Shown here: positions 9,669-53,115 of the stretch, in pieces
How the letters are laid out: each line of letters starts with the position of its first letter
How positions within the stretch are numbered: the first letter of the stretch is position 1
The notes under the pieces: generated by a model
Seen by the model: the letters and a program-made list of their open reading frames with translations, nothing else
Databases searched by the model: none
Told to the model about the DNA's origin: nothing
Source of the DNA: an uncultured Clostridia bacterium
Lineage (GTDB): Bacteria > Bacillota > Limnochordia > DTU080 > RSA5
Assembly: GCA_964424335.1 (NCBI GenBank)
Contig: CAYRIY010000004.1
Span: forward strand, 9,068 to 73,067
Direction of reading: 5' to 3'
Length of the DNA stretch: 64,000 nucleotides
Made by a program: the position numbers and the translations under genes

Positions 9669-9671
9669 AGG

Positions 9672-11045: not shown

Positions 11046-11078
11046 TTCCTCCCGAAAGGCGCGTGCGCTTTTTCGTGT

Positions 11079-12425: not shown

Positions 12426-12505
12426 CGACTTCTTCCCTTTCTCGGAGCTGCTCTTTAGGCCGTAGGGCCCGGGAAAGGCCCGCCGATCGGCGTGGCCGCC
12501 CCACG

Positions 12506-13897: not shown

Positions 13898-13969
13898 ACG
13901 ATCCGCCAGGTCGAGTCCAAACGAGGAGTTACGTCACATAAACGAGGGTAGCGGTCATCACAACACGGT

Positions 13970-14170
13970 CTAGCAGCGCATCGTGAGTATGAGTACAAAG
14001 ATGAGTCCCCCGAGGAGCACGACGTCGAACGGATTGGGAACGATCAGCACCTTGAGGAGTTCGATGCAGATCATTGCGACAATGACGACGAACGTCACGT
14101 CGAGGTTTCGCATTTTGCGCGACATGGATCGTTTCACCCTCACCGTGCAGGCTCGCTCGCCTGCTTTCAA
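13970..14170 (-). CDS. Possible small two-TM membrane protein (66 aa)
   Basis: Lies in the gap between two block genes on the same strand. It has hydrophobic segments VTFVVIVAMICIELLKVLIV and VVLLGGLIFVLILTM, and local GC content is lower. The coding evidence is weak. Confidence 0.3.
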   Translation of the reverse strand: MKAGERACTVRVKRSMSRKMRNLDVTFVVIVAMICIELLKVLIVPNPFDVVLLGGLIFVLILTMRC

Positions 14171-14268
14171 AGGAGTCGTGGCGTCAGTTCTTTCCCGCTA
14201 TCCTACGAGCCTCGGCGGAGGCTGGGAATAGTACTGAGTTCCCTAGTTCCCAGGTGGTAAGCGCATCC

Positions 14269-15363: not shown

Positions 15364-15381
15364 GGCAACCGCCTCCCTTAG

Positions 15382-16770: not shown

Positions 16771-16811
16771 AAGGACAAATCGCCATCCTGTAGTAGATCT
16801 TGCAAGATCGA

Positions 16812-18682: not shown

Positions 18683-18724
18683 AGCCGCTCGAGTCCCCCT
18701 TCATCGAAACGCCGACGATGAGAT

Positions 18725-19888: not shown

Positions 19889-19909
19889 TCGATTGTTATC
19901 TACAGTGCT

Positions 19910-21031: not shown

Positions 21032-21247
21032 ACTGGAGCTCCCCTTGAGGCGGGCAGCGCCCTGGCGACACGAAACCTTTTTCGAAAACACGCGGCGAGG
21101 GCAGGGCGCGGCGAGCACGCGTTTTGGCTGTGGCAGGAGCAATGTACGCTTGAGCGAAGGCTGTTGGATACAACCCGGCGCTCCTATTTTCGAGAAGTTC
21201 GACTTCCGAACAATGGGGCGCAAACAACGTTAATGTTCGTCTTTTGC

Positions 21248-31261: not shown

Positions 31262-33073
31262 CTAGCCCTGTTTCAACCGCTGGGCGAGCCCCTCGTCAGG
31301 TGTGACGTAGACGGTCTTGTGGTTATCGTAAATGACCATGCCAGGCCTTGCGCCGCGGGGTTTTCGCACATGGCGACACAAGGTGTAGTCGACCGGAACG
31401 TTGCTCGAGTGCCTCGCCTTGCTGTGCAGCGCTGCGAGCATCGCCGCCTCTTTGATGGTAACCTCCGAAACCTCGGCCCCCTTGGAAAAGACGACGACGT
31501 GCGCCCCGGGGATCTCTTTCGTGTGGAGCCAAAGGTCGTTTGGGCGGGCTAGGTGGAGGGTGAGTCGATCGTTTTGCTTGTTGTTGCGGCCAACGGCGAT
31601 CTCAAACCCTTCAGATGAACGCCAGCGAAGCGGCTCCGGGGCCGCGCCGGCGCGCTTTTTTCCCCGCTGCTCGGTTTGTTCGCTCGCATACCCTTCCTTG
31701 ACGAGTTCGTCGTAGACCTCTTCGAGGTCCGCCACCGTCCGGGCGAGGTCGAGGGAGCTTTCCACCGAATCGAGGTACGCAAGCTCCGATTCCGAGTGGC
31801 GGAGTTGCTCCGCTGCTTTCTCGAGCGTCTTTTTTGCCCTTTGATATCGCCTGTAGTAACTTTGCGCGTTGTCCGACGCCGTGAGCCGGGGATCGAGCTC
31901 GACCGTCACGGGAGGGGCATCGGTGTCGAAATCGTCGAGTTCGATGCTTGTTTGACCGGGCGGCAGGCCGCGCAAGAGATAAAGGTTGGCGGTGAGCAGG
32001 TCTCCGGCCTTGCGAAACTTTTCGGCCTCACCTGCTTCCTTGATCGACGCTCGCTGCCGATCCATCTTCTTTTCGATACGAGCGCGGTTTTGGCGCAAGG
32101 CGCTCTCGATCTTTTGCGTGAGGGATCGCATCGCCTCTTCTTCGTCGACGGCCTCAAAATGGCGGTCGAGGAGTTGTTGGGCGCTATTGTACGATGCGCC
32201 GTCGCCCTTGCCTACCACACTTGGAAAACACCAAAACTCGGGCTTTCCGCCCAGCATGAATCGGGAGGGCTCGCTTCGGCCCGCGTCGATCGCGATGACG
32301 AGTTCACGGATGACGTCCCACAGAGAACGCATATCATTCTCGGTTAGCTCGGCCCTCGTTTTTTCAGGCTCGACACCGGCCCTAAGCGCCGCCTCTCGAG
32401 CCGCGAAGGGACTTAGGCCCATCACCGCACGTTGGACGGCCCGATCGACGCTCGTCTGCACGCCCATGTGCCTGATCGCATCCTCGAACGCTTCGAACGT
32501 CGCGGCGCGGGGATCAAGCTTGTCTTGCGGCGGGGGAGGAACATAAGGACGACCCGGTACGATCTCACGGTACGCATTCGCATCACCATGGATCCGCTTT
32601 AGCGCGTCGATCACAACGCCTTCGCCTGGATCGATAAGGAGCAGGTTGCTGTGGCGGCCCATCACTTCAGCCGTAAGGATGCGCTCCACCCGCCCGCCGT
32701 GGGAACCGTACCCTTCGATCACGATCTGGAGCACGCGCTCAAACGGCGGTTGGCGCACGTCCACGATGCGGCCGGGAATCAGGTGCTTTCGGAGCAATAG
32801 ACAAAAGGCCGGCGGTGAGATCGGATTTTCAAAGGCGCGCGCCGTCAAATGGATTCTGGCCGCCGCCGGGTGGGTGGAGATGAGTAGGTGGAGCGTCTCT
32901 CCGGGCTTTCGCAGTCCGAGGAGAACATCCGTGCTCTTAGGTTGGTGCACGCTTTGAATGCGGGCGTTGATCAGCTCTTTGGAGAGCTCCGCCGCTACGG
33001 CGGTGAAAAAGAACCCGTCGATGGGCACATTCGTCCCCACTTTCATATAAGAGATTCCGGCGCGTTCTTGCAA
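31262..33073 (-). CDS. rqcH: RqcH / fibronectin-binding protein A family (NFACT-N, coiled coil, NFACT-R; YloA homolog)
   Basis: 603 aa with a central coiled coil and C-terminal ...FEIAVGRNNKQNDRLT...WLHTKEIPGAHVV (NFACT-R). Confidence 0.8.
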   Translation of the reverse strand: MQERAGISYMKVGTNVPIDGFFFTAVAAELSKELINARIQSVHQPKSTDVLLGLRKPGETLHLLISTHPAAARIHLTARAFENPISPPAFCLLLRKHLIPGRIVDVRQPPFERVLQIVIEGYGSHGGRVERILTAEVMGRHSNLLLIDPGEGVVIDALKRIHGDANAYREIVPGRPYVPPPPQDKLDPRAATFEAFEDAIRHMGVQTSVDRAVQRAVMGLSPFAAREAALRAGVEPEKTRAELTENDMRSLWDVIRELVIAIDAGRSEPSRFMLGGKPEFWCFPSVVGKGDGASYNSAQQLLDRHFEAVDEEEAMRSLTQKIESALRQNRARIEKKMDRQRASIKEAGEAEKFRKAGDLLTANLYLLRGLPPGQTSIELDDFDTDAPPVTVELDPRLTASDNAQSYYRRYQRAKKTLEKAAEQLRHSESELAYLDSVESSLDLARTVADLEEVYDELVKEGYASEQTEQRGKKRAGAAPEPLRWRSSEGFEIAVGRNNKQNDRLTLHLARPNDLWLHTKEIPGAHVVVFSKGAEVSEVTIKEAAMLAALHSKARHSSNVPVDYTLCRHVRKPRGARPGMVIYDNHKTVYVTPDEGLAQRLKQG

Positions 33074-34133: not shown

Positions 34134-36941
34134 GTGATGGCAGGCAGGCTGTCGCTTTGGCCTGCATCATCTTTCGAAGACGACGGGGTGAAACAAACGT
34201 CGATGCCGAATCCATGGCACTCTCTCACGCTGGAACAAGCTCTCTCGAAGGCGCACGTCTCGTCCACCCGTGGACTGAGCGACCAGGAGGCGGCGAAGCG
34301 CCTTCGGACCTACGGTCCAAACAGGCTCGAAGAGCGCTCCGGCCCAAGCCCGCTCGCCTTGCTCTTCAAGCAGTTCACCGACTTTATGGTCGTCGTGCTC
34401 ATTGCGGCGGCCATCATCTCATTCTTGCTCGGTGAGCGAATCGATGCGACCGCGATCCTCGCGATCGTCGCGCTCAACGCGCTGTTCGGATTTTTCCAGG
34501 AGTACAAAGCGGAACGCTCTCTTTCGGCGCTAAGGGAGATGACCGCGCCACAGACGACCGTGAAAAGGAACGGCAAACTCAAGGTCTTAAAGGCGACAGA
34601 GCTTGTTCCAGGAGACATCATCCACCTCAAAGAGGGCGATCGGATCCCCGCGGACGCGCGCCTTTTGGCTCAGTCGTCCCTTGCCGTCGACGAAAGCGCG
34701 CTGACCGGCGAGTCGGTCCCCGTCCGCAAGGATGCGACATGGGTCGGAGACCCTAAGACAGAGCTCGCCGAGCGACGAAACATGCTCTATATGGGAACCA
34801 GTGTCGCGCGGGGGCGGGCTGAAGCCGTCGTCGTCGCCACAGGGATGAACACGGAGATCGGAGATATCGCCGCCCTCATCAAGGATGTCGGAGACGAGCA
34901 GACGCCGCTTCAACGGCGCCTCGAGCAACTGGGTCGATGGCTGGTCGTTGCCTGCCTGGCGATCGTCGGGCTCGTCTTTGCTGCCGGGCTGTTGCAGGGG
35001 TTGCCGTTTTACAGCATGTTCCTGACGGGGGTCAGCCTTGCCGTAGCCGCGATTCCAGAGGGACTTCCTGCCGTGGTGACGGTCGCTTTAGCCCTTGGCG
35101 TACAAAAGATGATCCGCCGCAACGCGATCGTGCGCAAACTGCCGGCGGTGGAGACGCTTGGGTGCGCGACCGTCATTTGTTCCGACAAGACGGGAACGCT
35201 CACCCAAAACCAGATGACGGTGACCCGGATCGTACTGCCGACGTCCGAGATCGAGGTGACAGGCAACGGCTATGACGTCGATGGCCGATTCCTGGCTGAC
35301 GGCAAGGAGATCGATCCCGACCCGAACTCAGACCTCGGGATGGCGCTGTTGATTCAAGGGCTCTGCAACGACGCGACCGTCATCGAGGCTCGCCGTGGCA
35401 AGAGCGCCGTCCAAATTTCCGGCGATCCGACGGAAGCCGCGCTCCTCGTGTGCGCATACAAGGGCGGGCCGGCCGTGCGGGCAGCGATCAAGGGCGCTGA
35501 GCGTTTAGGCGAACTTCCATTCGACTCGGATCGCAAGCGAATGAGTGTCGTTGCCCGGGTGGGCGACTCGCGGCTTGTACTCGTGAAAGGGGCTCCGGAT
35601 GTCATCCTCGCGCGCTGCACGCACGTTCGCCGGATGGGGCGGGTGGCGCCGATGAGCCCTGCCGACCGCGGGCACGCGCTCAAGGCAGCGGAGCGTTGCG
35701 CCGATGGAGCTTTGCGCGTCCTGGCGCTCGCGTACAGGGAGGCGAAGCCAGGCGACGAGCGAGCGGGGGAGCGGGACGTGGGGGACGATCGGGTCGAAAG
35801 CGACCTCGTCTTCGTGGGATTGTCGGCAATGATGGATCCGCCGCGCCCCGAGGTCGCACGGGCCATCTTTCTCGCGAAGCGAGCGGGAATCGAAACAAAG
35901 GTCGTGACGGGGGATCATCCAAAAACTGCCGAGGCGATCGCCGCTAAGCTGGGGCTTGGACGGACACGGGCGATTACCGGTCGGGAGCTCGACGAGATGA
36001 GCGACGAGGAAATGGACAGGGCGGTCCGGGAGGGAACGGTCTTTGCCCGCGTCTCGCCAAGGCACAAGTTGCGGATCGTACGGGCGTTGAAAAAGCAAGG
36101 AGAGGTCGTCGCGATGACGGGCGACGGCGTAAACGACGCTCCCGCCGTGAAGGAGGCGGACATCGGCGTTGCGATGGGCAAGTCGGGCACGGACGTGACC
36201 CGGGAGGCATCCTCCATGGTGCTCGCGGACGACAACTTCGCGACGATCGTCTCGGCGATCGAAGAAGGGCGCGGCATATACGACAACGTCAGGAAGTTCA
36301 TTCGATACCTGCTCGCCTGTAACACGGGAGAAGTGTTGGCCATGTTTTTTGCCGCCTTACTCGGATGGCCGCTCCCGCTGCTGCCGATTCAGATACTTTG
36401 GGTCAACCTCGTCACAGACGGGTTGCCCGCAATTGCACTCGGCGTCGATCCCACCGACAAGCTGGCGATGGCGCGGCCGCCGCGCCGACCAAGCGAGGGT
36501 GTGTTTACCCGGGGCCTCCACATCAAGATCGCCGTGCGGGGGTGTCTGATCGCCGTATGCACGATCGTCGCATTTGCCGTGGGCATCATGATCGGTCCGC
36601 AGGGCGATGCAAACATCGCTTACGCGCGGACGCTCGCGTTTTGCACGCTGGTGGCATCGCAGCTCATTTACGTATTTCAATGCCGCTCGGAGTACAAGTC
36701 GCTCCCGGAAATCGGCATATTCGGGAATAAGTGGCTTGTCCTCGCCGTAGCCGCATCCTTTGGCATGCAGCTTGCGGCCGTCTACTGGCAGCCTGCCGCA
36801 GCCATTTTTGAGACGGTCCCCCTTTCGGGCCTCGACTGGATCATTGTGTTTGCGCTATCCGGTTGGTCACAGGCGCTCGAATCGACGCTCATCACCCTAC
36901 GAAGGGCCGTATTGAAAAGGATATCGCTCCTTCGCGTCTAA
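34134..36941 (+). CDS. P-type Ca2+-transporting ATPase (SERCA-like, YloB homolog)
   Basis: Phosphorylation site DKTGTLT, hinge [10 protein letters not shown], ten TM segments. The true start is probably the internal M at ~34203 ([14 protein letters not shown]). Confidence 0.85.
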
Positions 36942-37058
36942 GCTGCAGTTCGTAAGGGGAATCTTCAGTCGATTCGGGACCCTGATTCGCGAGGCGATGT
37001 TGAGGGGCCGCGCCGGTCCGTGTAAAACGCCCCGTAGACTGCTTGGAGTTGACGATTC

Positions 37059-37934
37059 GTGCTCGTGAGTATGACAGGCTTCGGCAGCGCTGCCGTATCC
37101 GATGCCGATTACAGCGTAAAAGTAGAAGTGCGGTCCGTGAACCACCGGTACTGCGAAATCGCCGTTCGGGCGCCCAAGGGGTATCAGGCGGTCGAAGACG
37201 GAATCCGCCGCTTAGCAGGGGAGTTTGTGGAGCGGGGAAGGACGGAAATTTTCGTTTCAGTAGAGGAATTTCATGGCAGGGAGAGAACGGTCAGGTTAGA
37301 TAAGGGACTGCTCGAAGGGTATCGGCACGCCTTTCGTGAGGCGGGCGAGGCGCTCGGCTTAGGTGGGTCGCTTACCTTGGACATGCTCCCGGCGATCGAG
37401 GGCGTTTTCCTTGTCGAAGAGGCCGAGGTCGATTTGGACGCCGTTTGGCCCCTCATCGAGAGCGCGGTGCGAGAGGCGCTAGGTGGGCTCCAAGCGATGC
37501 GATCGGCCGAGGGGAAAAGGCTCGAGGAGGACATGTTGCTTCGACTGCTTCACGTCGAGTCTCTCTTGGGATCGATTTCGAGGAGATCGCCCGAAGTGGT
37601 CGAATCTTACCGGAAGCGCCTGACTGAGCGGACCCAGCAGATGCTCTCGCAAGGCATCGACGAACAACGCATCGCACAAGAAGTTGCACTCTTTGCAGAT
37701 AAATCTAACATTGACGAAGAGATCACGCGGGCCAGAAGCCACATCGAGGAGTTCCGATCCGCCTGCAACCTCGGAGGGGCCGTCGGACGAAAACTCGACT
37801 TCCTGCTGCAGGAGCTAAACCGCGAAATCAACACGATTGGGTCCAAAGCCCAAGACGGCGAGATCGCGAAGCTGGTAGTCGATGTCAAAGCCGAGCTGGA
37901 GAAAATCCGAGAACAGGCCCAAAACATTCAGTAA
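37059..37934 (+). CDS. yicC: YicC-family stress-induced protein (YloC homolog)
   Basis: N-terminal MTGFG and C-terminal DUF1732 region (EELNREINTIGSKAQ). Confidence 0.8.
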   Translation: MLVSMTGFGSAAVSDADYSVKVEVRSVNHRYCEIAVRAPKGYQAVEDGIRRLAGEFVERGRTEIFVSVEEFHGRERTVRLDKGLLEGYRHAFREAGEALGLGGSLTLDMLPAIEGVFLVEEAEVDLDAVWPLIESAVREALGGLQAMRSAEGKRLEEDMLLRLLHVESLLGSISRRSPEVVESYRKRLTERTQQMLSQGIDEQRIAQEVALFADKSNIDEEITRARSHIEEFRSACNLGGAVGRKLDFLLQELNREINTIGSKAQDGEIAKLVVDVKAELEKIREQAQNIQ

Positions 37935-37958
37935 TCATTATTAGGAGGTGACCGGAAG

Positions 37959-38267
37959 ATGGCGTTGCCCAAGCTGACTCCAGACGAGAAGATGCGGGCG
38001 CTCCAAAAGGCCCAGGAAATGAGGACCAAGCGAGCCGAAGTTCGCGAGCAGCTCAAAAAAGGCAAGATCAGCTTGAAAGAGGTCCTCGAAAACTCGGAAG
38101 ATGAGGTTGTCGGTCGGATGCGAGTGGCATACCTCTTGCAGTCCTTGCCCCAAGTCGGCAAGGTTACGAGTCAAAAGATCATGAGCGAGATCGGCATTCA
38201 CGAAAGCCGACGCGTCCAAGGTCTTGGAAAGCGACAAATCGGGCTGCTACTCGAGAAGCTTGGTTGA
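37959..38267 (+). CDS. Actinobacterial-type integration host factor (mIHF/sIHF-like nucleoid-associated protein)
   Basis: [11 protein letters not shown]...[13 protein letters not shown]...[19 protein letters not shown]...[19 protein letters not shown] closely parallels mycobacterial mIHF (recalled from memory). The RBS AGGAGG lies 8 nt upstream. Confidence 0.6.
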
Positions 38268-38328
38268 TGGCCGTAGAGCGTCAATAGATGTGGGGCCCGG
38301 ATCGCGAATGGGAAGAAGTGCGAACCCC

Positions 38329-38598
38329 ATGGACATCAAGCTGATCAACATTGGTTTTGGCAACATCGTTACAGCAAATCGCATCGTCGCAATCGTCAGT
38401 CCCGAGTCCGCTCCCATCAAAAGGATCATACAAGAAGCGAGGGAGCGGGGAATGTTGATCGATGCCACGTACGGTCGGCGCACGCGAGCAGTCATCGTTT
38501 GCGATTCGGACCACGTCATCCTTTCGGCCGTTCAACCGGAGACTGTCGCTCACCGCGTTGCAAATCGGGAAAGTGGAGCCGTTGACGCAAGTTCGTGA
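38329..38598 (+). CDS. remA: RemA (DUF370) extracellular-matrix regulatory protein
   Basis: [76 protein letters not shown] is near-identical in pattern to B. subtilis RemA. Confidence 0.8.
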
Positions 38599-39223
38599 AT
38601 CACTGTTCAACAAGGGTCGGGGAAGTCACTTTTGGCCGGTAAATCGGCGAGGCTTTCTCATCGTATTGAGCGGTCCATCGGGCGCAGGCAAGAACAGCCT
38701 CTTGGCAAAGGTCTTGCCGCGTGTCCCCGACCTGAAGTATTCTGTTAGTGCAACCACAAGACCGCCGCGCCCCGGCGAAATCGATGGAGTCGACTACTTC
38801 TTTGTGGGAGAGACTGAGTTTCAGCGGATGGTCGACCAGGGCGACTTGCTCGAGTGGGCCGAGTTTGCAGGCTACCGCTACGGCACCCCGCGAAGGTTCG
38901 TCTTGGAGTCGATCGAAAAGGGACTCACCGTCATCACCGACATCGATATTCAAGGCGCGCGGCAGATCAAGCAAAATCTCCCTGAAGGCGTCTTCGTGTT
39001 TTTGTTGCCGCCGTCCGAGTCCGAGCTCAGAAAGCGGTTACAAGGGCGCGGCACGGACAGCGACGACGCCATTCGGCGCAGGATGAAGATCGCCGAAGAG
39101 GAGATCAAGGCAGTCGTCGACTACGACTACTGGATCATGAACGAGGACTTGGACGAGGCGTCCGACGTCCTACTTGCCATCATCAAGGCAGAACAGAGCA
39201 AAGTGCGGCGCGCCGACTTTTAG
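38582..39223 (+). CDS. gmk: Guanylate kinase
   Basis: [13 protein letters not shown]-loop and ...[26 protein letters not shown]. The start (TTG at 38582 or CTG at 38603) is uncertain; the tracked ORF from 38462 is over-extended into remA. Confidence 0.75.
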
Positions 39224-39265
39224 CGGCCTTGCGCGGGCGCTTTGGGAGGATTGAAGAACAGAGCG

Positions 39266-39472
39266 ATGAATCAACCGCCGATGGAAATGTTGAGCGAGAA
39301 AGTAGACAGCAGGTACAGCCTTGTGGTGTGCGCCGCAAAGCGAGCGCGCCAACTCCTCGAGGGAGCTCCGCGGCTGGTCGAAGTCGAATCAAACAAACCC
39401 GTCACCATCGCCCTGCACGAGTTGGGCGCGGATAAGCTCGTCTACGAACGGGCGAGCGCGAGCATCAAGTAG
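39266..39472 (+). CDS. rpoZ: RNA polymerase omega subunit
   Basis: MNQPPMEMLSEKVDSRYSLVVCAAKRARQL matches the RpoZ pattern. Confidence 0.8.
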   Translation: MNQPPMEMLSEKVDSRYSLVVCAAKRARQLLEGAPRLVEVESNKPVTIALHELGADKLVYERASASIK

Positions 39473-39517
39473 CGGGGAGTCTTATCCATTCCGCCCATCG
39501 CAGAAGTCATCGTCGAC

Positions 39518-41710
39518 TTGCACGTACACGACGTCGACCGCGTGTTTCATTACGCTGTTCCCGCACATCTTTCCGATCGCTTGGCGATCGGTCACAGAGT
39601 CGCTGTGCCTTTTGGCCATCGTGACCGGGTCGAAGGGTATGTCGTCGGCCTCTCCGAGTCGAGCGACCGCTGTGACCTAAAGGCGATCGGAGAGATCTTG
39701 GACGACGATCCGCTGCTCTCGCCCGCTGCGATTGCCGCTGCCAAGTGGATGCGCGACTTTTACCTGTGTACGCTCTCACAAGCGCTGCAGTGCTTCCTGC
39801 CTCCAGGAGCCAGCCTGCGGTCGAAACAAAGGGCCAACGAGCAGACGCTCCTGGCCTACCAGGTCGATCGAATTGAACAGGCGGAGGCCGCCTTGCCTGA
39901 GCTCGAGCGCCGTGCCCCAAAGCAGGCCGCGGCGTTGAGATTGCTCCTTTCTCAAGGCCGACCCTGTGAACTGAAAATGCTCAGGCAAGCGGGCATCGGT
40001 CGGGATGCATTGGTGCGCCTGGTCGAAAAGGGACTCGTCGCTCCCGTCCGCATTCGTGTAGGAAGGAGCCCCGTAGAAGCAAACTCCAGGCCAAGCCGTG
40101 CGCCGTACCGGCTCAGCTCCGTTCAAGACGCGGCCTTGCGGCGGATCGTCGGCAGCATAGAGCGGGGCGTCGCACAGTCCCACGTGCTTCAGGGCGTCAC
40201 GGGGAGTGGCAAGACGGAAGTTTACCTCCAGGCGATCGACGAGGCGATGCGCCGAGGCCGTGGGGCGATCTTGCTCGTGCCAGAGATCGCCCTAACCGAG
40301 CAGACCGTGAGCCACCTCCAGGCGTATTTTGGATCAAAGCTCGCAGTGCTTCACAGTCGCCTCTCCCTTGGCGAGCGGTTCGATCAGTGGCACTCGATCC
40401 ATCGGGGAGAAGTCTCCATCGTGGTCGGAGCGCGATCCGCCGTCTTCGCGCCGGTGCAAAACCTCGGCCTGATCATTCTGGACGAAGAGCACGAGACGTC
40501 GTACAAGCAGGAGGAGGCGCCGCGATACCACGCCAGAGAGGTGGCATGGACGCGAGCGAAAGAAGAGAATGCCACGCTCGTACTCGGCTCCGCGACGCCC
40601 GCGCTCGAATCCCGCTTGGCGGCCGAGCGCGGCGAGCGATCCCACATCCTCCTTCCTGAGCGGATCGACGGCAGGCCGCTTCCGAACGTCGAAGTTGTAG
40701 ACATGCGCAAGGAGCTCGCGGCGGGAAATCGGTCCGTCTTCAGCCGCTTGCTTTTCGACGGTTTGACCGCGGCCATCGCCCGAGGCGAGCAAGCGGTCTT
40801 GTTCATCAACCGCCGGGGCTTCGCTTCGTTTCTTCTTTGCCGTGAGTGTGGCTATGTGCCGGTGTGCGACCAGTGTGAAGTGAGTCTCACGTTCCATCAA
40901 CCCGACTCGCTCCGCTGTCACTATTGCGATGCTCACGCGACGCTCAAAGGCGCGTGTCCCGTTTGCAAGGGACCCTACTTGCGGCCATTTGGCGGGGGCA
41001 CCCAGCGCGTCGAACACGAGTTGAACACCGTGATGCCACATGTTCGCACGATCCGCATGGACGTAGACACGACGCGGCGCAAGGGTTCGCACGGACGCAT
41101 CCTGAGGGCGTTTGGCGAGGGCGCGTACGACGTGCTCATCGGCACGCAAATGATCGCGAAAGGGCTTCACTTTCCGGAAGTGACCCTCGTTGGGGTGGTG
41201 TCCGCGGACACCGGATTGCACTTTCCCGACTTCAGGGCCGCCGAACGCACATTTCAGCTCCTGACGCAGGTCGCAGGACGCGCCGGGCGGGGCGAGCGGG
41301 AAGGGCGTGTCATCATTCAGACCTACGCGCCCGATCACTACGCGATCAAGGCTGCAATGGGTCACGATTATGAAGGGTTTTACAGGTTTGAGCTCGGATT
41401 TAGGAAGCGGGCAGGCTATCCTCCGTACACCTCGCTCGTGCGGTGTGTGTGGAGCGGCGAGGTCGAGGAGAACGTGATCCGGGCCGCGCAGGAAGGATGG
41501 GCGTCCCTCCATGCGATCGTCGGAGGTCCGGAGGTCGTGGGACCATGTCCCGCGCCCTTGGCGCGACTAAAGGGAAGGTACCGGTGGCACCTTTTGCTCA
41601 AAGGATCGCCAAGCGAGGTAAGGGAGGCGGCGCACGCCTTGCGCACCTCTGAGCGGCGAAGAGACGACGTCCGTCTCGTTCTCGACGTCGACCCTGCGAA
41701 CATGCTGTGA
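39518..41710 (+). CDS. priA: Primosomal protein N' (PriA helicase)
   Basis: 3'BD N-terminus (HYAVP), Walker A GVTGSGKT, DEEH, and the Cys-rich zinc-binding region CRECGYVPVCDQCEVSLTFH...CHYCD...CPVC. Confidence 0.9.
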   Translation: MHVHDVDRVFHYAVPAHLSDRLAIGHRVAVPFGHRDRVEGYVVGLSESSDRCDLKAIGEILDDDPLLSPAAIAAAKWMRDFYLCTLSQALQCFLPPGASLRSKQRANEQTLLAYQVDRIEQAEAALPELERRAPKQAAALRLLLSQGRPCELKMLRQAGIGRDALVRLVEKGLVAPVRIRVGRSPVEANSRPSRAPYRLSSVQDAALRRIVGSIERGVAQSHVLQGVTGSGKTEVYLQAIDEAMRRGRGAILLVPEIALTEQTVSHLQAYFGSKLAVLHSRLSLGERFDQWHSIHRGEVSIVVGARSAVFAPVQNLGLIILDEEHETSYKQEEAPRYHAREVAWTRAKEENATLVLGSATPALESRLAAERGERSHILLPERIDGRPLPNVEVVDMRKELAAGNRSVFSRLLFDGLTAAIARGEQAVLFINRRGFASFLLCRECGYVPVCDQCEVSLTFHQPDSLRCHYCDAHATLKGACPVCKGPYLRPFGGGTQRVEHELNTVMPHVRTIRMDVDTTRRKGSHGRILRAFGEGAYDVLIGTQMIAKGLHFPEVTLVGVVSADTGLHFPDFRAAERTFQLLTQVAGRAGRGEREGRVIIQTYAPDHYAIKAAMGHDYEGFYRFELGFRKRAGYPPYTSLVRCVWSGEVEENVIRAAQEGWASLHAIVGGPEVVGPCPAPLARLKGRYRWHLLLKGSPSEVREAAHALRTSERRRDDVRLVLDVDPANML

Positions 41711-41762: not shown

Positions 41763-42275
41763 ATGGCTGTACTGGAAATACGCAAGGAAGGCGACCCCGT
41801 ACTGCGGGAGAAGGCGGCCCCGGTCGAGAAGGTGACGAAGCGGATCGCCAAGCTGATCAAGGACATGGAGGAAACGATGTACGCCGCCGACGGCGTCGGT
41901 CTGGCAGCGCCTCAGGTCGGGGTCCTCCTCAGGATCTTCGTGGCAGACGCCGGCGAAGGCCCCATGACCTTTATCAATCCGGTGCTCGTCGAGGGCAAGG
42001 GGTCCCAGGTGGACAGCGAGGGGTGCCTGAGCATCCCCGGAGTATACGGGTACGTGGATCGATACGAGTCCGTGGTCGTGACGGCGCAGGACGCCAAAGG
42101 AAAGTCCCGCCGCATCGAGGCGAGCGGCCTCATGGCTCGGGTGATTCAGCACGAGATGGACCACCTTGACGGTATACTTTTCACGGACAAGGCCACGGGC
42201 GTCAGCCGTCCGGGCGATCAAGGTTCCCAGTCGGCGGCCGATGCCGACAGCGAACAACCTGCCGGGGGCGCGTGA
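41763..42275 (+). CDS. def: Peptide deformylase
   Basis: GVGLAAPQ, EGCLS, HEMDHL motifs. Confidence 0.9.
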   Translation: MAVLEIRKEGDPVLREKAAPVEKVTKRIAKLIKDMEETMYAADGVGLAAPQVGVLLRIFVADAGEGPMTFINPVLVEGKGSQVDSEGCLSIPGVYGYVDRYESVVVTAQDAKGKSRRIEASGLMARVIQHEMDHLDGILFTDKATGVSRPGDQGSQSAADADSEQPAGGA

Positions 42276-43204
42276 TGGGCTTGGACATCGTGTTCATGGG
42301 GACGCCGGAATTTGCCGTGCCGGCGCTCGAGCGACTTTGCAAGTCGCCTCACACCGTGCGCGCGGTCGTGACCGCTCCGGATCGCCCAAGGGGCCGCGGA
42401 CACGCCGTGCAGCCGACGCCGGTGGCGCGTGCGGCAAAGTCGCTCGGGCTCGAGGTGTGGAAGCCTGAGAGCGTAAGAGATGAAGGCTTTTTGGACAGGC
42501 TGAAATGTACGGGGGCGCACGCCGTTGCGCTGGTGGCTTACGGCAAGATCATCCCCCCGAGCGTCTTGGAGTGGCCGGAATTTGGCTGCATCAACGTCCA
42601 CCCGTCGCTCTTGCCCAAGTATCGAGGCGCGTCGCCGATTCACGCCCCTCTTTTGCACGGCGATTCGACGACGGGTGTTACCACCATGTTCATGGACGAA
42701 GGATTGGACACCGGGGATATTCTACTCCAAGAGGAAATCCCGATCGAGCCGGACGACAACGCGGGCGATCTCCATGATCGGCTTGCAGCGCTTGGCGCTG
42801 ATTTGTTGCTCACAACATTCGACGGACTCGAACAGGGCTCGCTGCGGCGCGTGCCGCAAGACGACGAAAAGGCAACTTACGCGCCGAAAGTCGTGAAGGA
42901 GCAGATTCGCTGGGACATGCCTTCCACCCAGGTTGCCGCCCGCATTCGGGGTCTTTCGCCTTTTCCCGGAGCGTACACCTATATGGGTATGGCGCGGCTC
43001 AAGATTTTGCGGGCGGTCCCAGGACCTTTGGAGGTTTCCCTACCGCCAGGCGCGGTGGTCTCCCTATCGGAGGACGGCGTGGTCGTCGCTTGCAAGGAAG
43101 GTTCCGTCGTGATCCTCGAAGCGCAACCCGAAGGCAAATCGCCGTTGACCGCCGGGGTGTTTGTGGGGGGTTATGCTGCTCAAATCAAGGCAGGGTTTGC
43201 TTGA
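42272..43204 (+). CDS. fmt: Methionyl-tRNA formyltransferase
   Basis: MGTPEFAVP...NVHPSLLPKYRGASPI formyltransferase N-terminus. Confidence 0.9.
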   Translation: MMGLDIVFMGTPEFAVPALERLCKSPHTVRAVVTAPDRPRGRGHAVQPTPVARAAKSLGLEVWKPESVRDEGFLDRLKCTGAHAVALVAYGKIIPPSVLEWPEFGCINVHPSLLPKYRGASPIHAPLLHGDSTTGVTTMFMDEGLDTGDILLQEEIPIEPDDNAGDLHDRLAALGADLLLTTFDGLEQGSLRRVPQDDEKATYAPKVVKEQIRWDMPSTQVAARIRGLSPFPGAYTYMGMARLKILRAVPGPLEVSLPPGAVVSLSEDGVVVACKEGSVVILEAQPEGKSPLTAGVFVGGYAAQIKAGFA

Positions 43205-43318
43205 CAGAGCAAACCGCGCCAAGGTATTTTCTAGAGTGGAGGAGCGGTTTCAAGGCTCCTCATAGGTTTCCATCGCCCTTTGGACTTTTATGATGTTTAT
43301 ATGGAGGTCATGGGAAGC

Positions 43319-44023
43319 ATGTCATTCATTGACTTTATCGATCCAATCGGATTTATGCTCCTGATCCCCGCCTTCGCGCTCGCGATGTACGCCCAGTTCA
43401 AGGTGCAGTCGACGTTTGCCAAGTACCTACAAGTGCGGGCAAAAAGCGGAATCACGGGAGCGCAGGTGGCCCGGACGCTTCTCAACGACGCCGGATTGCA
43501 CGACGTGCCGGTAGAGGTGATTCCGGGACGGCTGACCGACCACTACGATCCCAGGTCGCGCACAATGCGACTGTCGCCGGACGTGTACCACGGCACCTCC
43601 GTCGCATCGCTCGGCGTTGCCGCGCACGAGACAGGGCACGCGCTCCAGCACGCGGAAAACTACGTCCCGCTGACGATTCGCAATCAGATTTTCCCGATCG
43701 CCGCCTTCGGTTCGCAGCTTGCGATGCCGCTCTTTCTCATCGGCCTGATCTTTGCGTCTCCAGGTGTCAGTGGTTGGTTCATGGATCTTGGCATTTGGTT
43801 GTTCACCGCAGCCGTCGCGTTTCAAGTCGTCACGCTGCCGGTCGAGTTCAACGCGAGCTCGAGGGCCATGAAGCTCTTGGTCGATCGAGGCTTCATCGAT
43901 CGGGATGAGGCCCCGCGCACGCGCGCCGTCTTGAGCGCTGCGGCCCTGACCTATGTGGCGGCCGCGGCCGTGGCGGCGCTGCAGTTGCTCCGGCTCGTCC
44001 TCCTGCGTAATTCGAGGGATTAA
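43319..44023 (+). CDS. YugP-like membrane zinc metallopeptidase (Zn_peptidase_2 family)
   Basis: HExxH motif in AAHETGHALQH, flanking TM helices, and the FDPT-like N-terminus IDFIDPIGF. Confidence 0.6.
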   Translation: MSFIDFIDPIGFMLLIPAFALAMYAQFKVQSTFAKYLQVRAKSGITGAQVARTLLNDAGLHDVPVEVIPGRLTDHYDPRSRTMRLSPDVYHGTSVASLGVAAHETGHALQHAENYVPLTIRNQIFPIAAFGSQLAMPLFLIGLIFASPGVSGWFMDLGIWLFTAAVAFQVVTLPVEFNASSRAMKLLVDRGFIDRDEAPRTRAVLSAAALTYVAAAAVAALQLLRLVLLRNSRD

Positions 44024-45499: not shown

Positions 45500-46294
45500 A
45501 TGGCTTCACGACCGATCCGAGTGATGATCGCCGACAACAACGTCGAGCTGTGTCGAACGATCCAAGAGTTCTTGACCACGCAAGGGGACATGGAGATCGC
45601 TGCAATCGCGCACGACGGCAAGGAAGCGTTGGACCGAATGGAGGAGGCGAGGCCCGACGTCGTCGTGCTCGACATCACGATGCCCAACCTCGACGGCATG
45701 GCCGTCCTGGAAAGGATGGGGAGCCTCAACCTAAACCCACGGCCGACGGTCATCGTGCTGACCGCCATGGGGCGGGAGGACATCATCCAAAGGTTTACCG
45801 AGCTTGGGGCTGAGTATTTCATTATCAAGCCATTCGACCTCGAGCTGCTCGCCGAACGCATCCGACAATTTTCGAGCGGGTCCGGATCGGCGCTCGTGGG
45901 CGAGGCGAGGGGTGATCGGGGCCTCGTCCGGGGCGTAGAAGATGCCTCACTTACCGTCACGCAGCTCCTTCACCGCATGGGCGTCCCGCCGAATTTCAAA
46001 GGTTACAACTACTTGCGTGACGGCGTTTTGATGGTGCTGCGCGACACGCAGTTGCTTGGCGGCGCATTGACAAAGCGGCTCTACCCCGAACTTGCGGAGA
46101 AGTATCGCACGACGCCCGGCGGGGTGGAAGCGGCCATTCGAAACGCGGTGCTGGCATGTTATGAGCGCGGCAATCGCGAGTTTATCGACGAGCTGTGCGG
46201 CCAGGGACCGAGAGCAAAAAAGACATGTCCCACTAACTCGATGGTCATCGCAAAGCTTGCCGACCACATTCGCTTGCAGCAAAAGGTCGGGTAA
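45500..46294 (+). CDS. spo0A: Sporulation master regulator Spo0A (receiver domain plus Spo0A-specific DNA-binding domain)
   Basis: Receiver VMIADNNVELC...DVVVLDITMPNLDGMAVLERM...YFIIKPFDLELLAERIRQ. The C-terminal domain LLHRMGVPPNFKGYNYLRDGV...LTKRLYPELAEKYRTTPGGVEAAIRNAV matches B. subtilis Spo0A [20 protein letters not shown]...[25 protein letters not shown]. Confidence 0.85.
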   Translation: MASRPIRVMIADNNVELCRTIQEFLTTQGDMEIAAIAHDGKEALDRMEEARPDVVVLDITMPNLDGMAVLERMGSLNLNPRPTVIVLTAMGREDIIQRFTELGAEYFIIKPFDLELLAERIRQFSSGSGSALVGEARGDRGLVRGVEDASLTVTQLLHRMGVPPNFKGYNYLRDGVLMVLRDTQLLGGALTKRLYPELAEKYRTTPGGVEAAIRNAVLACYERGNREFIDELCGQGPRAKKTCPTNSMVIAKLADHIRLQQKVG

Positions 46295-46772: not shown

Positions 46773-46850
46773 TGGTCGGGGCGGCCAGATTTGAACTGGC
46801 GACCTCTGCGTCCCGAACGCAGCGCTCTAGCCAAGCTGAGCCACGCCCCG
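46773..46850 (-). tRNA. tRNA-Pro (anticodon CGG), CCA encoded
   Basis: The reverse complement reads CGGGGCGTGGCTCAGCTTGGCTAGAGCGCTGCGTTCGGGACGCAGAGGTCGCCAGTTCAAATCTGGCCGCCCCGACCA. Acceptor 7 bp CGGGGCG/CGCCCCG, D-stem GCTC/GAGC, anticodon stem CTGCG/CGCAG with loop TTCGGGA, T-arm GCCAG-TTCAAAT-CTGGC. Confidence 0.85.
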
Positions 46851-48420: not shown

Positions 48421-49248
48421 ATGGGCTTGCTCTCCGACGTCGAACAACGGATCGACGCCTTAGTGCGCCGGGTCTTTCCAAAGCGCGCCGGGGATCGGGT
48501 TCAGCCGCTCGAGATCGCCCGCGAGATGGCAAAGGCGATGGAGCGACAGCGAACCCTCAGCGTCGATACCGTGTATGTCCCAAATGTGTTCCATGCCACG
48601 GTCCACGAGGACGACCTTGAAGCGTTGCGTCCCGTGTTAAACACCGTGAAGCGGGACGCCGCAAACTACGTAGAGCGTATCGCCGCAAAGCGAGGGTACT
48701 CATTTGCAGGCGCCGTTCGGCTCGAGATCTCGGCCTCCGAGCGCGCCGAAGCGGGCCGAGTCGTCGTCACGGCAAGCTTTGACGAGTCCGGAAAGGCGGC
48801 GCCAAACCGATCGGACCATACAAACGTCCAGGCGCCCGCAGGTGATGGCGCGGACTTCCAGACGAGGCGTTACGACGCACTCGTCGCGAAGACCGCGTCA
48901 CCCTCACCTCGTGTGAGCGGCGCTTCGGCGATCTTGGAAGTGGTGAGCGGCCCGGAAACCGGAAGACGATTGGAACTGAAGGGGGAGCGCACGTACCTGA
49001 TCGGGCGTCTGGAGGAGGCAGACTTGGCCTTGAGCGACACCCGCGTCTCGAAGCGGCACGCCGAGATCAGCTATCGGGATGGCGTCTGGTGGCTCACAGA
49101 TCTCGACAGCACCAACGGCACACGCAAGAATGGAAGGTCCATCGTGCAGGAGACGTTGGCTGACGGCGACCAAGTGGCCGTTGGCCTTACTACGCTCGCA
49201 TTCACGCTCGAATCGGAGCGCACCAAGATTGGACTCGATCGGGTATGA
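48421..49248 (+). CDS. FhaA-like protein: N-terminal DUF3662-like domain plus C-terminal FHA domain
   Basis: N-terminus MGLLSDVEQRIDALVRRVF...LEIAREMAKAME. C-terminal FHA (TYLIGRLEEADLALSDTRVSKRHAEISYRDGVWWLTDLDSTNGTRKNG). Confidence 0.7.
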   Translation: MGLLSDVEQRIDALVRRVFPKRAGDRVQPLEIAREMAKAMERQRTLSVDTVYVPNVFHATVHEDDLEALRPVLNTVKRDAANYVERIAAKRGYSFAGAVRLEISASERAEAGRVVVTASFDESGKAAPNRSDHTNVQAPAGDGADFQTRRYDALVAKTASPSPRVSGASAILEVVSGPETGRRLELKGERTYLIGRLEEADLALSDTRVSKRHAEISYRDGVWWLTDLDSTNGTRKNGRSIVQETLADGDQVAVGLTTLAFTLESERTKIGLDRV

Positions 49249-49715
49249 CCATGGGATCCGTGCTTTGGTGGCTCGGGCGCATGGCGTTCCTTGCCGTGCT
49301 CCTCGGTTTTATCCTCCAACTATATCGCGCGCTGGCCGCCTCGAGCCCGACGATCGATGCTCGTCGTCGCGGGCGGTCGGGACGCCTGATGCTGGAAGAG
49401 GTTGCCGAGAGCGCCGAGGTATGGTTAAAGGAGGGAACCGGCGAACAGCGAAGGCTAACCCCAGGCGCGAGGATATCCGTAACCGACTGCATCCAGATCG
49501 GACGCGGGCCCGAAAATCAACTGCGCATCGTTGATCCTTACGTCTCAACAAGGCACTGCGTGGTGCGAGAAGTGGGTGGGCAATTCATCGTAACCGACCT
49601 TGGAACGACGAATGGAACGCGCGTTGACGATCGACCTTTGACAGGCCGCGCATCCCTCGATTCGGGAATGACAATTGAAGTGGGCCGGGCGCGGTTTCGC
49701 TTTGAGGTGAAGTAA
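49245..49715 (+). CDS. FhaB/FipA-like membrane-anchored FHA-domain protein
   Basis: N-terminal TM (VLWWLGRMAFLAVLLGFIL) plus FHA (IQIGRGPENQLRIVDPYVSTRHCVVREVGGQFIVTDLGTTNGTRVDDRPL). Confidence 0.7.
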   Translation: MTMGSVLWWLGRMAFLAVLLGFILQLYRALAASSPTIDARRRGRSGRLMLEEVAESAEVWLKEGTGEQRRLTPGARISVTDCIQIGRGPENQLRIVDPYVSTRHCVVREVGGQFIVTDLGTTNGTRVDDRPLTGRASLDSGMTIEVGRARFRFEVK

Positions 49716-49719
49716 GCGT

Positions 49720-50460
49720 ATGCGAGTTGGGTACGGGACCGATGCCGGCCGGGTAAGGCCGATCAATGAAGACTGTCTGTGGGCGGACGATAAGCTCCTC
49801 GTACTGGCCGACGGCATGGGCGGGCACCAAGCAGGAGAAGTCGCGTCCCGGCTTGCCGTGGAATCGGTCGTAGCCCACTTTCAAGATCACGAGGCGCCCG
49901 CGGATTGCGAAAAATCCAGCGTGGCGATCGATCTTGTGCGCGCGTCGGTCCGCGCCGCCAATGCGCTCGTCTACTCCAAGTCGCTCCAAGCCCCCGAACT
50001 CAAAGGCATGGGCACGACGCTAACCGTCGCGCTCCTCGTCAATGGGGAAGCGGTCCTCGGCCACGTGGGAGACAGCCGCGCTTATCTCGTCCAGCCCGAG
50101 TCGATCGTCCAACTTACCGAGGACCATTCGGTCGTGTGGGAGCTCATGCGAAGCGGCAGCCTGAGCAGCCAGGAGGCGCACGTCCATCCGTACCGCAACA
50201 TGCTCACCCGCGCGCTCGGCACCGCGATGACGGTCGAAGTGGACACCGTGAGGCTTCGTTTGAAACCAACGGACGGGCTGCTGCTCTGTTCCGACGGCTT
50301 GACGGGCGTGCTCTCTGATGAGGAGATTCACGCGATCATCTCGAGCAACTCCGATCCACAAGCCGCCGTCGACGCGCTGATCGAGCAGGCAAACGCCCGC
50401 GGCGCTCCGGACAACGTCTCCGCGATCCTAGCTCTTCCGGAGGGAGACGTTCGTGGATAG
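49720..50460 (+). CDS. prpC: PP2C-family Ser/Thr phosphatase (PrpC/PstP homolog)
   Basis: RVRPINED, DGMGGHQAGEVAS, GDSRAY, SDGL motifs. Confidence 0.85.
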   Translation: MRVGYGTDAGRVRPINEDCLWADDKLLVLADGMGGHQAGEVASRLAVESVVAHFQDHEAPADCEKSSVAIDLVRASVRAANALVYSKSLQAPELKGMGTTLTVALLVNGEAVLGHVGDSRAYLVQPESIVQLTEDHSVVWELMRSGSLSSQEAHVHPYRNMLTRALGTAMTVEVDTVRLRLKPTDGLLLCSDGLTGVLSDEEIHAIISSNSDPQAAVDALIEQANARGAPDNVSAILALPEGDVRG

Positions 50461-51730
50461 ACTCGTCCTGTGGGCGCTGGGCGCGGGCAACGCGGCGATC
50501 CTCCTTGCCGAGCTAGGCCGTGACGGCGCGCTCCACCTCAGCCACTTGGCACTCCCGGTCCTGTATACGATCGCCTATGTCGGTTCCATTTGGTTTTTGC
50601 GCGCGCGCGGTCGCCCGGTCGATCCGATGTTGCTTGGCGTCGTGTGCGCCCTGACCGGGATCGGCCTTGCAGCGCTCGTCCGCCTCGACGCTGACTTGGC
50701 GTTTCGCCAGGTCAGGTGGATCATCCTCGGGATCGGTTTGTTTACGTGGATCTCCCTTGTGAGCCCGTGGAACTGGGTGAGGCGTTATCGGTACGTCTGG
50801 GCGATCGGTGGACTTGCCCTCCTATCGCTCACCGCCTTGTTTGGCGTTCGGTCAGGGGGGGCGCGCTCTTGGCTCGATCTTGGTTTTTTTAGTTTTCAGC
50901 CCGTAGAAATAGCAAAGATTTGCGTCGTCTTTTTTCTCTCGTCGTATTTGGCCGAAAATCGGATGTTCTTGACCGGCGCCCCTGGAAGAGTCGGAGGCGT
51001 GCCGGCGCGCCTTGAGCATCTTGGACCGATCGGCGCCATGGCGCTGCTTTTTGCGCTGGCCCTTGTCGCGCAAAGGGACCTTGGCGCGGCGCTCATTTTG
51101 GTCGGGCTGTGCGTTTGGATGCTCACCGCTGCGACCGGCAGGCTGTTTTACGCCGTGATTGGGGGCGGTCTCGCCGCTGCCGGCGGCGCAGCGGCCGTCT
51201 TCCTCTTCGATCACGTGCGGATCCGATTCAAAGTCTGGCTCGACCCTTGGAGCATGGCAGACGGTCCCGGCTATCAAATCGTCGAGAGCATGTTCGCACT
51301 GGCCGGAGGCGGCTTTTTCGGCTCTGGGTGGGGACACGGGTTAGCGCACCGGATTCCCGCCGTCGAGACCGACTTTATCTACAGCCTCATCGTTGAAGAG
51401 GTCGGGTTCATCGGCGCCGCAGGCCTGCTCTTTTTGTTTGCAGTCTACTGTATACGGGCGCTTCACCCCGCACTCGACCCCAACGTGGAGGACTACGTCC
51501 GCCTAGGGACAGCGGGTCTTTCCGTATTGGTGGCCATGCAAACTTTTTTGATCGTGGGCGGCGTGACGCGTCTGTTGCCTGTCACGGGTGTGACGCTCCC
51601 CTTCGTCAGTTACGGGGGGAGCTCGATGATCTCATCCTTCGTACAGCTTGGCCTTGTCAATTGCGCGCTTGTCGCAAAGGAACGAACCCTCGATGAAGTA
51701 AGCGAGGCGCCGCGATGGAACGAGGGTTGA
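50453..51730 (+). CDS. rodA: SEDS-family peptidoglycan polymerase (RodA/FtsW)
   Basis: The GTG at 50453 overlaps the PP2C stop. Multi-TM protein with the conserved FQPVEIAK and the C-terminal LPVTGVTLPFVSYGGSSMI. Confidence 0.85.
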   Translation: MDRLVLWALGAGNAAILLAELGRDGALHLSHLALPVLYTIAYVGSIWFLRARGRPVDPMLLGVVCALTGIGLAALVRLDADLAFRQVRWIILGIGLFTWISLVSPWNWVRRYRYVWAIGGLALLSLTALFGVRSGGARSWLDLGFFSFQPVEIAKICVVFFLSSYLAENRMFLTGAPGRVGGVPARLEHLGPIGAMALLFALALVAQRDLGAALILVGLCVWMLTAATGRLFYAVIGGGLAAAGGAAAVFLFDHVRIRFKVWLDPWSMADGPGYQIVESMFALAGGGFFGSGWGHGLAHRIPAVETDFIYSLIVEEVGFIGAAGLLFLFAVYCIRALHPALDPNVEDYVRLGTAGLSVLVAMQTFLIVGGVTRLLPVTGVTLPFVSYGGSSMISSFVQLGLVNCALVAKERTLDEVSEAPRWNEG

Positions 51731-53112: not shown

Positions 53113-53115
53113 TAC

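Follow-up and report, generated by a model that had tools for sequence, protein, structure and literature searches.

Gene organization of the locus

We analysed a 64-kb stretch of DNA (the window, i.e. the whole 64,000 nucleotides (nt) taken from contig CAYRIY010000004.1 of an uncultured Clostridia bacterium of the Limnochordia), in which a small gene between yloC and remA encodes a protein of 102 amino acids (aa) that matches the mIHF/sIHF family of nucleoid-associated proteins. The gene order around it is rqcH (minus strand), yloB, yloC, mIHF, remA, gmk, rpoZ, priA, def and fmt (Table 1). The order of an mIHF-like gene, remA, gmk and rpoZ, as read by the first-pass annotation of this DNA, was confirmed on one strand.

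The mIHF gene starts with ATG, is preceded by the Shine-Dalgarno sequence AGGAGGTG and is single-copy within the window. The starts of two downstream genes are less certain. gmk can begin at TTG 38582 or GTG 38573, both overlapping the 3' end of remA, and its open frame extends back to 38462; the true start of rpoZ is possibly the ATG at 39266. The RemA translation exceeded the equivalog cut-off of NF046064 and carries R18 and P29, two residues that Winkelman et al. reportedly found to be functionally critical. The Bacillota markers in the window are Spo0A, RemA, YloC and RqcH, plus the run of rsmB, rlmN ... PASTA kinase, rsgA and rpe.

Table 1. Positions of the genes and other features in the window
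Feature	Position	Strand	Basis of assignment
rqcH/yloA (NFACT) gene	31262-33073	-	PF05833, 410.4 bits; kept in related loci
yloB-like P-type cation ATPase gene	34134-36941	+	Size, DKTGT P-type phosphorylation motif in translation, position between rqcH and yloC; no Pfam/NCBIfam scan
yloC/yicC-family endoribonuclease gene	37059-37934	+	TIGR00255, 244.5 bits (cut-off 167.5), model positions 1-290/291; Pfam YicC-like_N and YicC-like_C
mIHF/sIHF-family nucleoid-associated protein gene, 102 aa	37959-38267	+	NF041260, PF22525 and 4ITQ/6TOB matches
remA (DUF370), DNA-binding biofilm/matrix regulator gene	38329-38598	+	NF046064, 158.4 bits (cut-off 140); PF04025, 128.7 bits
gmk guanylate kinase gene	38582-39223 (start uncertain)	+	TIGR03263, 223.8 bits (cut-off 160.45)
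rpoZ, RNA polymerase omega subunit gene	39242-39472	+	TIGR00690, 57.1 bits (cut-off 23.6); PF01192
priA replication-restart helicase gene	39518-41710	+	NF004066, 860.8 bits (cut-off 813)
def	41763-42275	+	Position and homology in related loci
fmt	42272-43204	+	Position and homology in related loci
fhaA (FhaA_N and FHA)	48421-49248	+	
Second FHA gene	49245-49715	+	
PP2C phosphatase gene	49720-50460	+	
FtsW/RodA gene	50453-51730	+	
PBP-A type transpeptidase gene	51715-53112	+	
PASTA Ser/Thr kinase gene	53116-55083	+	
Pyrimidine operon (pyrB, pyrC, pyrF, carA, pyrK, pyrD)	2192-8453	+	
carA, within the pyrimidine operon	5452-6621	+	
ATP-grasp/ligase cluster	9000-21223	-	
215-aa open reading frame	9000-9647		
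Putative neutral zinc metallopeptidase gene	43280-44023	+	PF04298
spo0A	45500-46294	+	Receiver domain and Spo0A_C
tRNA gene	46776-46850	opposite to spo0A	

Family assignment of the 102-aa protein

The open reading frame (ORF) was matched by the NCBIfam model NF041260, 'integration host factor, actinobacterial type' (model positions 1-101 of 102, 125.5 bits, cut-off 60, E = 1e-36), and by the Pfam model PF22525, H2TH_5 (89.3 bits, cut-off 27, E = 1.7e-25). A phmmer search against all PDB chains returned two proteins only, sIHF of Streptomyces coelicolor (SCO1480; 4ITQ/6BEK) and mIHF of Mycobacterium tuberculosis (Rv1388; 6TOB). Both aligned end to end, with window residues 1-99 on sIHF 1-100 (E = 3.5e-25) and 1-102 on mIHF 5-107 (E = 3e-24). 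Identity of the window protein is 53% to sIHF over the chain and 50% to mIHF over the full length, and sIHF and mIHF share 64% with each other. Like sIHF (107 aa), the protein is basic (11.6 kDa, isoelectric point 10.05, 21 K+R versus 13 D+E).

The close resemblance to mIHF/sIHF that the first-pass annotation had proposed is borne out by the NF041260 score and by the full-length match to both solved proteins. The curated mIHF model was passed, and the outcome that the annotation had set against its own proposal, a generic helix-hairpin-helix (HhH) protein failing the mIHF models, did not occur.

Residue conservation was compared between 70 Bacillota-type sequences and 81 actinobacterial-labelled sequences, the latter being known members or at least 60% identical to one. 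The same residue occupies at least 90% of both sets in 20 alignment columns. These include A14, L15, K17, A18, R22, R25 and A26 on the N-terminal helix face, P64, G67 and K68 in the H2TH second turn, and I80, R84, R85, G88, L89 and G90 in the lid (the RR-x-GLG motif). In the sIHF-DNA crystal, the H2TH second turn and the positively charged lid contact the DNA backbone; the conserved N-terminal helix makes no DNA contact and was proposed as a protein-interaction surface (PMC3627587). Since the residues of the turn and the lid are conserved, the Limnochordia protein appears to keep the DNA-binding parts of sIHF, together with the N-terminal helix surface. The two sets differ by near-fixed substitutions (at least 90% in each group), K11 in the Bacillota-type proteins versus R, and R55 versus K.

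A moderately confident AlphaFold2 model built with 30 relatives (predicted local distance difference test score, pLDDT, 73.5) placed helices at residues 8-34, 39-45, 49-61, 68-78, 84-87 and 91-101. As expected, the N-terminal helix is long and four to five short helices come after it, so that the predicted helix order would be that of sIHF. In Foldseek, the 6BEK chains of sIHF were the sole PDB matches with a probability above 0.25 (1.00), at a template modelling (TM) score of 0.41-0.46 and a root-mean-square deviation of about 8 Å.

A merely superficial likeness to mIHF, with the protein being a generic nucleic-acid binder of HhH or S13-like type (such as one that binds RNA as a partner of the YloC endoribonuclease), is very unlikely. 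The Pfam family is indeed named 'S13-like H2TH domain', and ribosomal protein S13 gave a weak match (E = 0.0013, below cut-off). The full-length match of a curated equivalog-domain model at twice its cut-off, and the colinear alignment to both solved members from residue 1 to about 100, with the family-specific N-terminal helix included, do not agree with a superficial likeness. The adjoining RNase gene and the label 'ComE-like DNA-binding protein', given to some relatives by the Joint Genome Institute (JGI), would also fit a generic binder, but no ComEA or HhH Pfam model was above threshold, and we rejected a generic HhH/ComEA-like protein on this ground and on the score of the mIHF model. 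Judged by its sequence, the 102-aa ORF is a genuine, full-length and orthologue-grade member of the mIHF/sIHF family.

Distribution and conserved gene order in the Limnochordia

One genome per GTDB species was scanned, and the neighbours of mIHF were located by tblastn with the window proteins. The scan gave 70 mIHF loci, all from metagenome-assembled genomes (MAGs) labelled Bacillota, Limnochordia, Limnochordales, Clostridia or 'Peptococcaceae'. Gene order around mIHF was colinear in all 70 loci. remA follows mIHF in every one of them, yloC precedes it in 69, and a colinear yloB homologue was found in 60. The priA start lies less than 900 nt after rpoZ in all 63 loci that extend that far, and the full yloB-yloC-mIHF-remA-gmk-rpoZ-priA-def-fmt string is present in 49. 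The sole locus without yloC between yloB and mIHF is L065 (Limnochordaceae MAG Bu26, 5692-6001), where yloC would not fit into the gap of about 300 nt.

Three loci are divergent, with mIHF 55-60% identical and no yloB (L064, L066 and L068). L064 (5980-9913) and L068 (6001-8410), from gut and other MAGs labelled 'Peptococcaceae' or Firmicutes, show the order rqcH(-)-yloC-mIHF-remA-gmk-rpoZ-coaBC(-metK). L066 ends after remA, before rpoZ, and only its upstream part is visible.

A protein database search gave 329 mIHF homologues, which came from metagenomes; the 120 matches listed were 67-94% identical. Named homologues were labelled 'integration host factor, actinobacterial type [Limnochordia bacterium]' or '[Firmicutes bacterium]'. 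Compared with the best species-representative loci, the window shows 86% identity in mIHF and only 60-62% in PriA, and the window organism is not among the representatives. It was found at 100% identity in two JGI metagenomes. Three JGI contigs, Ga0180216_1051715, Ga0182742_1018736 and Ga0182742_1090265 (L073, L074 and L076), encode proteins 99-100% identical to those of the rsmB-spo0A-rlmN-fhaA-fhaB-PP2C part of the window, so the window organism is present in these public metagenomes. A closer relative, L075 (PriA 72%), has the same order from remA to fhaA.

Vertical inheritance of the mIHF gene

Pairwise distances across the 70 loci were calculated for mIHF and for a concatenation of its neighbour proteins YloC, Gmk, PriA, Def and Fmt. 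The two sets of distances were correlated (Spearman 0.70, Mantel p = 0.001), and the mean distance was 0.29 for mIHF versus 0.45 for the neighbours. Because the distances co-vary and those of mIHF are smaller, the gene has been inherited with its neighbours under stronger constraint. The identity of each locus to the window protein, set against the identity of its neighbours, was uninformative, as the window is at about the same distance from most loci. GC content at third codon positions (GC3) is 0.67 for the mIHF gene and 0.60-0.80 for the surrounding genes.

These results exclude a recent transfer, as mIHF diverges in step with the adjoining genes, shows higher conservation and matches them in composition. 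A recent acquisition from an actinobacterium by this organism, or a contaminated or chimeric assembly, is suggested only by the name of the best-matching model and has a negligible probability, since the same order occurs in 70 independent species-level assemblies and on metagenome contigs obtained independently from this organism and a relative, and the best actinobacterial identity is only about 53%; both were rejected on the 70 colinear loci, the Mantel test and GC3. The mIHF gene was present in the lineage, or had entered it, before the sampled Limnochordia diversified.

Comparison with known gene arrangements

Two reference arrangements are documented. In M. tuberculosis, mihF is directly followed by gmk and rpoZ, on which its deletion has a polar effect (PMC6155035). 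In Olsenella (L071/L072), the order is pyrR-pyrB-pyrC-pyrK-pyrD-pyrF-mIHF-gmk, followed by a 94-aa gene. In the Firmicutes surveyed in one study, the yloC orthologue csiA is reported to be 'immediately upstream' of remA or gmk and always upstream of rpoZ, and yloC and remA share an operon in B. subtilis (bioRxiv 10.1101/2020.02.25.964569).

Because both reference arrangements are documented, the picture drawn by the first-pass annotation, a locus combining the two patterns, is accurate. The actinobacterial order of mihF, gmk and rpoZ that it gave is the one found in M. tuberculosis, with pyrF-mIHF-gmk as the Olsenella counterpart. Its statement that remA normally follows yloC agrees with the csiA study for Firmicutes, with the addition that yloC is present upstream here; mIHF is inserted between yloC and remA and does not replace yloC. 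Its description of a merged locus (mIHF, remA, gmk, rpoZ) also holds, and is to be extended: the arrangement is a fixed trait of the class (70 of 70 loci) and not a one-off merger.

Compared with the Bacillota yloC(csiA)-remA-gmk-rpoZ operon of B. subtilis and Clostridia, the flanking genes and their order are alike, and so is the wider neighbourhood (rqcH-yloB-yloC ... priA-def-fmt-rsmB-rlmN ... PASTA kinase-rsgA-rpe). The window differs in three respects. The mIHF gene separates yloC from remA, as in 69 of the 70 related loci; coaBC is missing between rpoZ and priA; and spo0A, the zinc-peptidase gene and an fhaA-fhaB-PP2C-rodA-pbpA block are interleaved downstream.

Compared with the sIHF locus, remA lies here between mIHF and gmk, yloC takes the upstream position of pyrF, and the host belongs to the Bacillota and is not an actinobacterium. 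mIHF of M. tuberculosis, which is essential and stimulates phage L5 integration, is also encoded upstream of gmk-rpoZ and is probably co-transcribed with them. Its string continues with rpoZ-coaBC-metK (the actinobacterial order, Rv1388-Rv1392), unlike the rpoZ-priA junction of the window. With the IHF/HU family of E. coli, the protein shares the name and a general role as a small nucleoid-associated protein only; there is no relationship in sequence or fold, and the mIHF family is monomeric with an H2TH core (PMC3627587).

pyrF adjoins mIHF in Olsenella, unlike in the window, where the pyrimidine operon lies about 30 kb upstream of mIHF. A 402-aa database representative (P0215) is apparently PyrF fused to a C-terminal mIHF domain, either as a real fusion or as a gene-calling artefact; it agrees with the pyrF-mihF adjacency.

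The absence of coaBC, with priA directly after rpoZ, had been pointed out by the first-pass annotation, and it stands. The two genes are separated by 45 nt with no coaBC between them, and priA occupies the slot in which coaBC lies in B. subtilis and Actinobacteria. No CoaBC was found in the 64-kb window by tblastn with the L064 protein, and a Pfam scan of 46 ORF translations from the window detected no Flavoprotein or DFP domain. Named homologues of the L064 CoaBC came from Caloramator and Thermincola. Among the 70 loci, tblastn gave no CoaBC match in 68 and a match only in L064 and L068. In these two loci coaBC directly follows rpoZ, with metK next in L064. Since they keep coaBC in place, the mIHF slot predates the disappearance of coaBC from behind rpoZ.

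A second actinobacterial-style gene block

About 10 kb downstream of mIHF, between rlmN and rsgA-rpe, the window carries a block running from fhaA to the PASTA kinase gene (48421-55083; Table 1). The block follows the actinobacterial order fhaA-fhaB-pstP-rodA-pbpA-pknB, in full fhaA-fhaB-pstP-rodA-pbpA-pknA-pknB (Rv0014c-Rv0020c). B. subtilis presumably has only prpC-prkC at this position. The rlmN-fhaA junction is kept in L075. The PstP locus has been described as 'conserved throughout the Actinobacteria' (PMC6554272). A lineage-level explanation becomes more attractive than coincidence when 17 kb of an otherwise Bacillota backbone contain two arrangements of actinobacterial style.

Relation to actinobacterial proteins and origin of the gene

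In a search of 1.84 billion cluster representatives, 2015 clusters matched at E ≤ 0.001, 542 of them at E ≤ 1e-10. When 26 divergent representatives were combined into a profile aimed at other phyla, only Coriobacteriia (e.g. Olsenella and Atopobiaceae) were returned. In a neighbour-joining (NJ) tree of 217 sequences, the 70 Bacillota-type proteins formed one clan, which otherwise contained two unlabelled representatives only, P0121 (the cluster representative of the 70) and P0136. The smallest clan holding all 70 was free of actinobacterial-labelled sequences in 69% of 200 NJ bootstraps, and in 77% when the 67 core sequences were considered. Corrected distances from the window protein were 0.73 to sIHF, 0.80 to mIHF and 0.75 to the Olsenella (Coriobacteriia) protein, and the mutual distances of these three were 0.49-0.65. 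As far as the sequences tell, the Bacillota-type proteins are a separate clan, roughly equidistant from Streptomyces, Mycobacterium and Coriobacteriia, and no donor lineage stands out. As these are unrooted NJ trees of about 100 columns, they constrain the history of the gene without settling it.

One member of the Bacillota clan, P0136 (339 aa), has an N-terminal mIHF domain and a long charged C-terminal extension, which can be a real fusion or a gene-calling artefact.

Two histories compete, of which ancestral retention is slightly the likelier, at somewhat less than an even chance. The common ancestor of Bacillota and Actinomycetota would have carried a (yloC)-mihF-(remA)-gmk-rpoZ-coaBC-(metK)-priA-fmt-rsmB string, from which mihF was kept in Limnochordia and lost in other Bacillota, and yloC and remA were lost in Actinomycetota. 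Both phyla have mihF in one and the same slot, upstream of gmk-rpoZ. The yloC-mIHF-remA-gmk-rpoZ-coaBC(-metK) order of L064 and L068 extends the match to the actinobacterial rpoZ-coaBC-metK string. Retention is also consistent with the bootstrap support for a clan free of actinobacterial-labelled sequences, and with distances to Streptomyces, Mycobacterium and Coriobacteriia that exceed the distances among them. The position of mihF upstream of remA, not adjoining gmk, is unlike the expected product of recombination through gmk homology. The same window also has the second actinobacterial-style block, which occupies the Bacillota slot rlmN...rsgA-rpe. On the other side, retention needs a loss in all other Bacillota classes, and in other Terrabacteria phyla if they are without the gene. 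The support from the tree is moderate, and most of its reference sequences carry no taxon label.

An ancient horizontal transfer is nearly as probable, and we rank it only slightly below retention. A single mihF of an early actinobacterium would have reached the stem of Limnochordia and relatives, landed in the gmk-rpoZ operon by chance or by selection, and been inherited vertically since then. The patchy known distribution of the family, which is treated as an actinobacterial signature protein (PMC3627587, PMC4255298), argues for such a transfer. So do the single sequence clan of all recovered Bacillota members and the many losses that retention would need. The identity of 50-53% to actinobacterial proteins is high, given a length of about 100 aa and a separation dating to the divergence of two phyla, but it is also explained by strong constraint, as the protein evolves more slowly than its neighbours. 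A chance landing in the homologous slot is improbable, no actinobacterial donor lineage is closer than the others, and any compositional trace is gone. More complicated histories take up the remaining probability.

Transcription and proposed function

The genes are closely spaced, with gaps of 24 nt between yloC and mIHF, 61 nt between mIHF and remA, and 18 nt between gmk and rpoZ, and with remA and gmk overlapping. Across 69 loci, the median gaps are 42 nt (yloC-mIHF) and 28 nt (mIHF-remA). A consensus scan found no terminator-like sites on the plus strand between the genes, and an Rfam scan found one tRNA and no regulatory RNA near the locus. Co-transcription with yloC, remA, gmk and rpoZ is the simplest and most likely reading, in line with the polar mihF deletion of M. 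tuberculosis. If the genes are co-transcribed, as is probable, the level of mIHF would follow the levels of guanylate kinase and the RNA polymerase omega subunit.

By analogy with its solved relatives, the protein is most likely a non-specific, monomeric, nucleoid-associated DNA binder. We infer this activity from the sIHF-DNA complex and from work on mIHF. The small basic monomer would bind double-stranded DNA without sequence specificity through the H2TH second turn (LPQVGKV) and the arginine/glycine lid (ESRRVQGLG), and one protein could touch two duplexes simultaneously. Such binding may compact the chromosome, change its topology (in Streptomyces, jointly with topoisomerase I) and adjust transcription broadly. 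A conserved protein partner is probably held by the N-terminal helix face, which is kept across phyla.

Several points weigh against this interpretation. The fold match is mainly a sequence-based one, because the pLDDT of the model is only 73.5 and its TM-score to sIHF only 0.41-0.46. The consensus scan of 36800-39700 gave no sigma-70-like promoter, which leaves gene spacing as the only basis for the transcription unit. The topoisomerase effect and the phage-integration role known from actinobacteria may not transfer to Limnochordia. In conclusion, we consider it highly probable that the gene encodes the mIHF/sIHF orthologue of the Limnochordia, predicted to be a nucleoid protein that binds double-stranded DNA non-specifically, and that it is a fixed, vertically inherited and likely co-transcribed part of the yloC-mIHF-remA-gmk-rpoZ(-priA-def-fmt) string.

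Other features of the window

The putative neutral zinc metallopeptidase gene lies between fmt and rsmB and has the same position in L075. spo0A is placed within the housekeeping string, between rsmB and rlmN, and L075 has it in the same placement (7123-7911). The tRNA gene is just 3' of spo0A. In the pyrimidine operon, carA is directly followed by pyrK, and no ORF of the size of carB is nearby. The dense cluster on the minus strand contains five YheC/D-type ATP-grasp genes, two phiEco32-like COOH-NH2 ligase genes, a RimK-like ATP-grasp gene and a GT4 glycosyltransferase gene. Such amide-bond-forming enzymes suggest that an unusual polymer, of peptide or poly-amino-acid type, is made, perhaps in connection with the spore or the cell surface. 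The 215-aa ORF at one end of the cluster had no Pfam match.

Significance

The mIHF/sIHF family has been described as specific to Actinobacteria (PMC3627587), and it is listed among the actinobacterial signature proteins (PMC4255298). No relevant mention of mIHF in Limnochordia or Firmicutes turned up in our literature search. The family is known already, as are its structure and likely mechanism, and the NCBI pipeline already labels Limnochordia proteins as 'integration host factor, actinobacterial type'. That the family extends beyond Actinobacteria is not reflected in the literature. The mIHF gene described here is an ordinary housekeeping gene. The finding would mildly surprise a specialist; it opens no long-standing question alone, and its evolutionary angle is modest.

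A conserved, vertically inherited orthologue in a class of Bacillota, in the homologous position, removes the actinobacteria-specific status of the family, and calls for caution when mIHF/sIHF is used as a taxonomic marker for Actinobacteria in metagenomes. It also gives a wider host range for studying a poorly understood nucleoid protein, including its conserved N-terminal helix, which does not bind DNA, and the partner of this helix. At the same time, the mIHF string and the fhaA...PASTA-kinase block are two linked gene-order characters that bear on the relation of Limnochordia, which are diderm and spore-forming, to the other Gram-positive phyla. We propose, as a possibility that does not reach an even chance, that the mihF-(remA)-gmk-rpoZ string and the fhaA...PASTA-kinase block are gene-order relics of the common ancestor of Bacillota and Actinomycetota, kept together only in Limnochordia and relatives. 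mIHF would then be an ancestral Gram-positive nucleoid protein lost by most Bacillota, and not an actinobacterial invention. If this is true, the Limnochordia carry rare synteny characters for rooting and ordering the deep branches of Terrabacteria.

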